Assembly: GCF_051903065.1 (NCBI RefSeq)
Contig: NZ_CP178438.1
From: Escherichia coli
GTDB lineage: Bacteria; Pseudomonadota; Gammaproteobacteria; Enterobacterales; Enterobacteriaceae
DNA: 64,000 nt
Reading direction: 5' to 3' (one strand)
The translations under genes and the position numbers were made by a program. The notes beneath the pieces were generated by a model. It saw only the letters and a program-made list of their open reading frames with translations. It was not told the DNA's origin and ran no database searches. Numbering within the stretch: position 1 is the first letter of the stretch; each line of letters opens with the position of its first letter. Of this stretch, positions 30,122-33,451 are shown one piece after another.

Positions 30122-30182
30122 TAAGTTCTGAACCTTCTTATCAAAAATAGATGTGAAGGATTAAGTAAGACATCTGGCAAAT

Positions 30183-30208
30183 AGCCCGCAATAAACGCGG
30201 GCTGTTTG
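30183..30208 (+). terminator. Hairpin after amn
   Basis: AGCCCGC-(7 nt)-GCGGGCT followed by GTTTG. Confidence 0.5.
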
Positions 30209-30463
30209 CTTCCTTGGGCGGATACGAGTTTTATTATCGTCTTAATGATTTCCACATATTAAAAGCAAGTATGCTTTCAAAACACAATTATAAAAAATCC
30301 CACCAACAATATAAGTTTTTATAAAATTAAATATAAGATTATGACTTTAGAATATTTTTATTTCTAATAGACGAGATTTTTCCTGTTATGATATAATATG
30401 CCGAATTAACACATGTTAACGATTTACCAGTAATGTAAATAAATTTTCGAGGAGATCATTCCA

Positions 30464-31180
30464 GTGGGACGTAAATGGGCCAATATTGTTGCTAAAAAAA
30501 CGGCTAAAGACGGTGCAACGTCTAAAATTTATGCAAAATTCGGTGTAGAAATCTATGCTGCTGCTAAACAAGGTGAACCCGATCCAGAATTAAACACATC
30601 TTTAAAATTCGTTATTGAACGTGCAAAACAGGCACAAGTTCCAAAGCACGTTATTGATAAAGCAATTGATAAAGCCAAAGGCGGCGGAGATGAAACATTC
30701 GTGCAGGGCCGTTATGAAGGCTTTGGCCCTAATGGCTCAATGATTATCGCCGAGACATTGACTTCAAATGTTAACCGTACGATTGCTAACGTTCGCACAA
30801 TTTTCAATAAAAAAGGCGGCAATATCGGAGCGGCAGGTTCTGTCAGCTATATGTTTGACAATACGGGTGTGATTGTATTTAAAGGATCAGACCCTGACCA
30901 TATTTTTGAAATTTTACTTGAAGCTGAAGTTGATGTTCGTGATGTGACTGAAGAAGAAGGTAACATTGTTATTTATACTGAACCTACTGACCTTCATAAA
31001 GGAATCGCGGCTCTAAAAGCAGCTGGAATCACTGAGTTCTCAACAACAGAATTAGAAATGATTGCTCAATCAGAAGTTGAGCTTTCCCCAGAAGATTTAG
31101 AAATCTTTGAAGGGCTTGTTGATGCCCTTGAAGATGACGACGATGTACAAAAAGTTTATCATAACGTCGCAAATCTCTAA
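30464..31180 (+). CDS. yeeN: YebC/PmpR-family transcriptional regulator YeeN
   Basis: 238 aa, GTG start with GAGGAG RBS; YebC-family N-terminus [11 protein letters not shown]; markedly AT-rich gene. Confidence 0.85.
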
Positions 31181-31627
31181 TTATCTTTTAAAGAAATCTG
31201 TCTTTATGGCAGATTTCTTTAATCTCATATAATCCTTATAAAAAATATAATGTTCAACTCGTCATATTGCTTATAAAAATTCCCCCAGAGAAATAATATT
31301 TATTAAAATTCCAGGTCTTCTTTTTCTGATTACAGAAGGCAAGTGGTAATTACGTATAGTTTCCCGATAAAGACGCGACAGCAACATCCCGCATAAGGCA
31401 TTGTTCTCTTTATCTTTGTACGGTACTTCATGGAACAGAGATTTTGACCTTGCGAATCGTGATGTCTGTTGGGGAGGGCAATTTGCTCACTGAAGCGTGA
31501 GGCTCGATTAAGCGCACGAAACACAGATATCAAAAAACCCGGTCGCTTTCTACAAGGTAACCGGGTAAAAATAATTTTTATTTTTTAACTGCTCTGAGAC
31601 TCATAAAGATGCCTCAAAACTAAAATT

Positions 31628-31703
31628 TGGCTCCTCTGACTGGACTCGAACCAGTGACATACGGATTAACAGTCCGCCGTTCTACCGACTGAACTACAGA
31701 GGA
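31628..31703 (-). tRNA. asnW: tRNA-Asn (GUU)
   Basis: Reverse complement is identical to asnT. Upstream on the minus strand: TTGACA (rc of 31745-31750) and TAATAT (rc of 31722-31727). Confidence 0.95.
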
Positions 31704-31803
31704 ATCGTGAGAACGAGGCGAATATTAGCGATGCCCACCCACAATGTCAAAGCCTGTTTTTTAAATTTGAAATCGTTTGCTGAAATAATCTGCATTTTGT
31801 CGT

Positions 31804-33291: not shown

Positions 33292-33407
33292 TTCAAATAA
33301 TGAGGGAGAATCAGCAAAGCTGCAAAGATTTTCGCCAACAAATTGTCTGCAAATGCAACAAACTGTTGATAGAAACGGCAAACAGTTGGGGAATTTAAAA
33401 ATCGGGT

Positions 33408-33435
33408 TTGACAAAAGATTTTTCGCCGTTAAGAT
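33408..33435 (+). promoter_or_regulatory. sigma70 promoter of asnU (TTGACA-16bp-TAAGAT)
   Basis: -35 TTGACA 33408-33413, -10 TAAGAT 33430-33435, tRNA begins 33452. Confidence 0.55.
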
Positions 33436-33451
33436 GTGCCTCAACAGCGAT

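Follow-up and report, generated by a model that had tools for sequence, protein, structure and literature searches.

The intergenic region between yeeN and asnW in Escherichia coli as a probable composite of non-coding DNA between convergent transcription units

The 447-bp gap that separates yeeN from asnW in Escherichia coli is ordinary composite intergenic DNA, and it probably acts as a non-coding buffer between two convergent transcription units without containing a gene of its own. In the window, the 64,000-nucleotide stretch of E. coli DNA analyzed here, yeeN ends at position 31180 and asnW, on the minus strand, has its 3' end at 31628, so that the gap spans 31181-31627. As judged from its sequence, it is composed of four pieces, namely the yeeN hairpin, a relic of a GyrI-like gene, a 57-bp spacer, and the asnW 3' flank. 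We propose that on the yeeN side a terminator hairpin arrived together with yeeN and is followed by what is left of the promoter and 5' part of a GyrI-like gene, the neighbour of yeeN in a Lactococcus-like donor, and that transcription of the tRNA precursor from the opposite side continues through a structured trailer of ~60 nt into an intrinsic terminator. The minority of transcripts reading through this terminator would then cross a moderately conserved block of ~90 nt and the relic before being halted by Rho near where yeeN ends, which would keep the strong tRNA promoter from driving antisense transcription into yeeN. This reading is based on the anatomy of the gap, its homologies, structure-preserving substitutions, frame-breaking indels, and population data obtained here, together with published K-12 data on Rho-limited read-through. 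The conservation of 31443-31531 counts against regarding the gap as passive DNA, and chimeras from Hfq RIL-seq hint in the same direction. The assignment closes an annotation gap in the much-studied asn-tRNA island hotspot near the pks and HPI sites and has little wider import.

The first-pass annotation had described the interval between the two genes as about 450 bp of AT-rich DNA without an assigned feature. Its boundaries were recovered exactly, and the interval is unannotated both in this genome and in K-12: no feature is annotated in the gap in the identical RefSeq record NZ_CP019259.1 or in the curated MG1655 genome. The 571-nt stretch 31150-31720 matched E. coli strain 13C1065T at 100%. 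In an Rfam search carried to E-values up to 10, no family reached its gathering threshold inside the gap, the tRNA alone passing; matches to STnc370 (27 against a threshold of 54) and manA-II (26 against 100) were set aside as sub-threshold chance matches. The gap block is single-copy in each genome, and we know of no resemblance between it and the REP or ERIC consensus. The description as AT-rich holds for the gap as a whole, which has 35.6% GC versus 48% for the 64-kb window, but not for all of its parts, since the GC content rises from ~30% beside yeeN to 47.8% in 31443-31534. Likewise, the ~300 bp that had been considered unexplained shrinks to ~57 bp that is still unassigned, as ~150 bp is attributed to the GyrI-like relic and ~185 bp to the asnW 3' flank.

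The yeeN product belongs to the YebC/TACO1 family according to Pfam, and we take it to be the YebC_II protein recently tied to the translation of proline-rich proteins. It was 93% identical to its Lactococcus taiwanensis counterpart and 76-79% identical to streptococcal homologues, and the gene, which has 39.7% GC, showed 82.6% nucleotide identity to that of L. taiwanensis. By these identities yeeN looks horizontally acquired from a Lactococcus/Streptococcaceae-like donor; a published statement of its transfer from a Lactococcus-like donor was not found in the literature. The yeeN cassette was also present in Citrobacter, Superficieibacter, a Raoultella metagenome-assembled genome (MAG), Kluyvera, and Shimwellia, where it occupies differing genomic contexts with no tRNA nearby and has ~110 nt upstream and 40-160 nt downstream of the gene in common with E. 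coli. In the window, the cassette covers 30352-31385, including ~110 nt upstream and ~200 nt downstream of yeeN. E. coli yeeN thus appears to sit on a ~1-kb cassette of Lactococcus-like origin to which a stub of its old neighbour is still attached. A record titled E. coli SCPM-O-B-8794 carries a yeeN with 91% nucleotide identity to that of E. coli, adjoining an EAL-domain-like gene with no tRNA nearby; this identity and the differing context raise the possibility that the record falls outside E. coli proper.

The hairpin that had been noticed at the yeeN end was located at 31188-31222 on the plus strand. It resembles an intrinsic terminator, with a 15-bp AU-rich stem that includes a perfect 13-nt inverted repeat, a 5-nt loop, and a strong predicted fold (-18.7 kcal/mol, z -7.4). 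Its tail reads UAAUCUC rather than a clean U-run, the U residues being mostly inside the 3' arm, and a simple terminator scan flagged neither this hairpin nor that of asnW. The hairpin is kept beside yeeN in Citrobacter, Superficieibacter, Kluyvera, and Shimwellia and as far as L. taiwanensis. Overlapping it on the plus strand, a consensus scan found a promoter-like site, ATGGCA-16-TATAAT, at 31206-31233 with 10 of 12 matches. Its perfect TATAAT (31228-31233) aligns with a TATAAT upstream of the Lactococcus GyrI-like ORF, and the site is probably the relic promoter of the donor GyrI-like gene, with the TATAAT as the old -10 element.

On the basis of synteny and alignment, ~31236-31385 on the plus strand (right limit approximate) is probably the decayed 5' stub of a GyrI-like (PF06445) gene that was co-transferred with yeeN, corresponding to the promoter and the first ~50 codons. 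In Lactococcus, the gene after yeeN encodes an intact 214-aa GyrI-like protein (PF06445 at 44.5 bits). Three Citrobacter loci (L008, L009, and L010) retain downstream of yeeN a stub of this gene with an in-frame stop, and the L008 stub matches the N-terminus of the Lactococcus GyrI-like protein with a tblastn E-value of 2e-7. The E. coli sequence 31188-31342 is in turn 71.6% identical over 155 nt to the L008 sequence downstream of yeeN (E 7e-13); the similarity to the Citrobacter stretch is firm to ~31342 and weaker, at best suggestive, to ~31385. In-frame translation aligns I-K-I-P-G-L-L-F-L-I-T-E-G-K of E. coli with I-E-I-P-G-L-N-Y-L-M-I-D-G-K of Citrobacter. In Lactococcus, Citrobacter, and E. 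coli alike, the GyrI-like sequence directly follows yeeN, and stops and indels are present in the relic. A direct tblastn search of the E. coli gap with the Lactococcus GyrI-like protein gave no match, and the link runs through the Citrobacter intermediates. Like other gene relics at the edges of acquired cassettes, this one shows synteny with an intact donor gene and near-neutral polymorphism, and its decay is graded: the gene is intact in Lactococcus, reduced to a stop-containing stub in Citrobacter, and hardly recognisable in E. coli. Unlike other gene relics, it has kept only ~50 codons and the promoter region, and its similarity to the donor protein is undetectable. The 57 bp that follow (31386-31442) form a strandless spacer between the relic and the asnW flank that has no assignment by homology; no homology to it was found outside E. 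coli.

The remainder of the gap, 31443-31627, is by alignment an old asnW 3' flank common to Salmonella only. The tRNA-Asn(GTT) gene asnW itself was placed by ARAGORN at 31628-31703 on the minus strand (Rfam tRNA, 72.6 bits), and a consensus scan found a promoter-like site, TTGACA-17-TAATAT, at 31750-31722 on the same strand. Its flank comprises, also on the minus strand, a 3' trailer or external transcribed spacer at 31567-31627 (comprising hairpin 1, 31591-31620, and an AU hairpin, 31567-31585), an intrinsic terminator predicted from sequence and fold at 31532-31566, and a post-terminator block of ~90 bp at 31443-31531 that is conserved with Salmonella and would be transcribed by read-through alone. 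The predicted fold of 31525-31627 on the minus strand has an energy of -29.5 kcal/mol (z -3.9). The terminator has a stem at 31537-31566, whose base consists of six G-C/C-G pairs, and a U6 tract at 31532-31537, 61 nt past the tRNA end, close to the minus-strand stem and U-run that the first-pass annotation had placed at about 31533-31570 and considered able to end asnW. This role is borne out by the position of the stem and U-run directly downstream of the gene and by compensatory changes that keep the stem. Among E. coli strains, the pairing is held via U-A to C-G and wobble changes, with changes on both sides at pairs 82-101, 85-98, and 87-94 of the alignment fold, and Salmonella has the same outer stem and U-run. 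Of the 12 pairs of hairpin 1, two show double compensatory changes between E. coli and Salmonella, and there are several wobble changes besides.

The stretch 31481-31626 was ~74% identical to the Salmonella DNA next to the tRNA-Asn by yeeO, and the alignment extends to ~31443. The post-terminator block alone was 72% identical to Salmonella, compared with 69% for the asnW-yeeO spacer and 35% for yeeO four-fold sites; the small hairpins predicted in this block showed no compensatory changes. A long-trailer unit of ~165 nt follows both tRNA-Asn genes flanking yeeO in Salmonella, and in a Salmonella Abortusequi record filed as a plasmid (L083 2501-2650 and 4562-4709) the long trailer is duplicated and inverted on both sides of yeeO. 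The strand of amn in Salmonella is opposite to that in E. coli and E. albertii. A general inversion of amn between E. coli and its relatives was rejected, as it applies to Salmonella only and E. albertii and the others share the E. coli orientation. The four asn-tRNA trailers in the window are mutually unrelated beyond the tRNA.

Comparison with other relatives suggests how the gap came to separate asnW from its neighbour. In E. albertii, Enterobacter kobei, Pseudescherichia, and Kluyvera, yeeO and tRNA-Asn are followed by a convergent amn, the distance from the tRNA to the amn stop is 43-84 nt, and a short GCCCGC-type terminator resembles those of E. coli asnU and asnV. The E. coli amn terminator, AGCCCGC...GCGGGCT at ~30181-30207, is homologous to the E. 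albertii trailer-terminator that abuts tRNA-Asn (window 30122-30215 versus L091 3556-3760), which implies that E. coli carries an insertion of ~1.42 kb before asnW. We infer that the E. coli lineage gained the segment ~30208-31627, which holds yeeN together with the gap, in a single insertion at the tRNA 3' end. A search allowing up to 3 mismatches in 20 nt detected no repeat of the tRNA 3' end at the far edge of this segment. A decayed attR at ~30206-30232 appeared plausible by eye and was discarded after failing both the 3-mismatch search and a shuffle test.

A variant of this origin, compatible with the main reading and entertained only tentatively, is that 31443-31627 represents the leading end of an old mobile islet integrating at tRNA-Asn genes, the 1.4-kb segment including yeeN being its eroded remnant. 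The inserted DNA precisely fills the interval from the ancestral amn terminator to the 3' end of the tRNA, the trailer is short in relatives that lack the insertion, and the long trailer accompanies both Salmonella tRNA-Asn genes that flank yeeO. Moreover, asn tRNA genes, asnW among them, are known island sites (PMC8209727). In strain MLI106K3 (L087 1377-1924 onward), asnW is occupied by an island that encodes an RHS core protein and a TPR protein, and the sequence ceases to match the window after 16 nt of the tRNA 3' end (31628-31643), the expected direct repeat bounding the island. An islet origin is, however, weakened by the lack of any integrase remnant in the inserted segment and of a significant second tRNA 3'-end copy, local alignment being no better than shuffles, and by the yeeN cassette having no tRNA near it in Citrobacter and other genera. 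Nor was the long trailer found next to integrases in plasmid and phage collections, where the only matches were mis-filed chromosomal pieces of E. coli and Salmonella. Whether or not the inserted segment was once such an islet, the gap resembles the flanks of the pks and HPI tRNA-Asn attachment sites in that it becomes the island-distal flank when asnW is occupied; unlike the occupied pks and HPI sites, asnW of the window is unoccupied and has no repeat copy.

Within E. coli, the asnW-side 308 nt (31320-31627) were present at a coverage of at least 80% in 5397 of 5426 complete genomes, and the full gap with its flanks was present in 5396. Conservation across strains had been proposed at first pass as a check on the gap, and the joint absence of transcription and conservation as grounds for dismissing it; the gap is conserved and K-12 RNA from it has been published, and neither indicates a gene. 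Among seven diverse strains, the mean pairwise difference was 5.3% in the gap versus 1.6% for yeeN and yeeO and 2.1-2.6% for the spacers nearby. The least variable sub-block was 31443-31531 (3.0% versus 5-8% in the other sub-blocks), within-species diversity of 31346-31442 was 5.7%, and the asnW trailer was the most polymorphic sub-block (7.9%). An IS1 element was found at ~31357-31374 in strain 1223, and strain CFIAFB20180511 combines an IS1 with a 154-bp deletion of 31375-31528 that takes the spacer and the post-terminator block. From the diversity, the IS1 insertions, and the deletion, we concluded that most of the gap is close to neutral. Several strains carry IS1A in the gap (these two and also H26 and H27), and CFIAFB20180511 and 1223 additionally have an internal stop that makes yeeO a pseudogene. 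The window allele of 31150-31720 is rare, with 6 records at least 99% identical over 571 nt and most at 90-95%; yeeN of the window is 99% identical to that of K-12 despite this rare gap allele, which fits the recombination-prone asn-tRNA/HPI/pks neighbourhood.

The same strain comparison bears on coding potential. It is extremely improbable that the gap encodes a small protein, be it the 67-codon minus-strand ORF at 31330-31533 or another of the 30-67-codon ORFs that occur on both strands. The first-pass annotation had called the 67-codon ORF low-quality, and rightly so: its TTG start lies inside the terminator U-run with no visible ribosome-binding site, and its frame is not conserved among strains. 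A 1-nt indel in K-12 makes the product diverge after residue ~18 and run to 88 aa. Its first ~18 residues do resemble a Salmonella ORF at the same place, as expected from the 72% nucleotide identity. Since indels shift its frame between strains, we regard the 67-codon ORF as spurious. In addition, a G-run at ~31472-31478 carries 1-, 3-, and 4-nt indels among the seven strains, so that coding of 31443-31531 is ruled out on either strand; the plus-strand ORFs crossing the run also differ. The MG1655 curation lists nothing of this kind. Conserved coding in the gap is refuted, which leaves at most strain-specific translation.

Transcription and 3'-end mapping had also been named as checks, and the parts of the published K-12 data considered here contain both minus-strand read-through and Hfq-bound RNA from the gap. 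The Term-seq list of Adams et al. (2021; PMC7815308), considered here for two of its three conditions, includes a minus-strand 3' end at K-12 2058025(-), 2 nt past the mature tRNA, and lists none at either intrinsic terminator. The missing 3' end at the asnW U-run may reflect rapid processing of the trailer. In supplementary file 2 of the same study, among the entries for this locus, a minus-strand Rho termination region (Rho score 9.3, p 3.7e-37) peaks at K-12 2057519, which corresponds to about window 31125, antisense to the yeeN 3' end, the termination point being imprecise because the call uses 800-nt windows dominated by tRNA reads. The upstream/downstream coverage of this region was 1121/26 without bicyclomycin and 843/182 with bicyclomycin, as measured in K-12 rather than in the window strain (Adams et al., 2021; PMC7815308). 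The bicyclomycin-sensitive drop in coverage indicates that in K-12 some transcripts run past the asnW terminator and on through the gap until Rho halts them. The post-terminator block may contribute to Rho loading. Its minus-strand RNA contains 26 C versus 18 G, compared with 76 C versus 83 G in the whole gap, and this modest C-over-G bias makes a rut reading of 31443-31531 weak. The supplements of the Cappable-seq and SMRT-Cappable-seq studies have no entry at the gap coordinates.

In these respects the gap behaves like other E. coli convergent-gene spacers, with two facing hairpins at the unit ends, and like those with a Rho back-up, in which bicyclomycin-sensitive read-through ends antisense to the neighbouring gene. 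It differs from the usual convergent spacers in its unusual length, which is due to a long tRNA trailer and ~200 bp of decayed DNA of foreign origin between the two terminators. A different use of the shared hairpin, as a bidirectional terminator for a plus-strand small RNA from 31443-31531, is very unlikely. The hairpin does resemble a bidirectional terminator in being preceded by an A-run and followed by T-rich sequence, and a long-range stem of GAUGUCUGU with ACAGAUAUC is predicted on the plus strand, whose G-U pairs would, as we read them, be C-A mismatches on the other strand. However, the plus-strand fold reaches a z of only -2.4, the sequence after the stem reads UAAAAAU rather than a U-run, and K-12 has a mismatch in the long-range stem. 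A consensus scan found no promoter-like site upstream on the plus strand, the conditions covered by the Adams Term-seq list include no plus-strand 3' end here, and homology in the second Salmonella copy ends before any upstream promoter could lie.

The 3'ETS-leuZ RNA is a tRNA 3' external transcribed spacer that sponges the small RNAs RyhB and RybB. By analogy, the asnW 3'ETS (31532-31627, minus strand) could be released as an Hfq-binding RNA that pairs with small RNAs such as OmrB and acts as a sponge or decoy, a possibility that we consider unlikely; that E. coli has in it a second Hfq sponge derived from a tRNA, one that titrates OmrB and possibly OmrA, is slightly less likely still. In both cases the RNA would run from the tRNA 3' end to a U-run terminator; the asnW trailer is structured, ends in a U6 terminator, and has a hairpin 1 that covaries between E. 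coli and Salmonella. Table S1 of Bar et al. (2021; PMC8175672), built on the RIL-seq data of Melamed (2016), lists an 'asnW.yeeN.IGR', whose naming order, as in leuZ.yecA.IGR, points to a minus-strand RNA. In exponential phase, this RNA had 48 chimeric fragments with one partner and was always the second RNA in the chimera, the sRNA-like position that 3'ETS-leuZ also mostly takes, with a U-tract of 6. Its sRNA score was 0.094, compared with a cut-off of 0.1 and with 0.17 for the sponge leuZ.yecA.IGR. In iron limitation, it had 92 fragments, two partners, and an sRNA score of 0.015 (Bar et al., 2021; PMC8175672). The partner medians, 37 interactions and a SIC score of -0.126379, are reproduced by averaging the omrB row (73, 0.747243) with an RNA of a single interaction (1, -1), and this arithmetic on the summary columns suggests OmrB as one of the partners.

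The comparison with 3'ETS-leuZ is unfavourable in several other respects. The 48-92 chimeras are few beside the 5729 of leuZ.yecA.IGR in iron limitation, both sRNA scores fall below the authors' threshold, and the Term-seq conditions listed include no 3' end at the terminator. Unlike 3'ETS-leuZ, the asnW trailer shows neither a stable species nor a convincing pairing site. A CUCUGGG motif at 31285-31291 of the minus-strand RNA matches the OmrA/B 5' end, with seed energies no better than those of random segments. Compared with the best OmrB-seed duplex on the minus-strand RNA (-15.4 kcal/mol in K-12), 73% of 523-nt segments drawn at random from the window did equally well or better. Full-length OmrA/B duplex folding was abandoned, as it produced meaningless long duplexes, and the seed-only analysis was no better than background. 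The high polymorphism of the trailer within E. coli and the absence of asnW from the supplements of a nitrogen-starvation RIL-seq study also argue against a sponge. If real, such a trailer would couple tRNA-Asn transcription to the control of outer-membrane protein and biofilm genes; as a candidate for 3'ETS-type sponge activity, it is the only lead here worth a bench test.

Beyond asnW, a separate DUF5951 ORF (35-59 aa) was observed just upstream of yeeO in other genera (L091 1764-1922, L093 1819-1950, L096 1846-2025, and L100 1814-1921), the E. coli equivalent being 33292-33444 on the minus strand. The long yeeO ORF of the K-12 annotation (546-547 aa) covers the DUF5951 position, and PGAP calls a 495-aa YeeO. 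From these positions, the N-terminal extension of YeeO may be a fused or mis-joined DUF5951 ORF.
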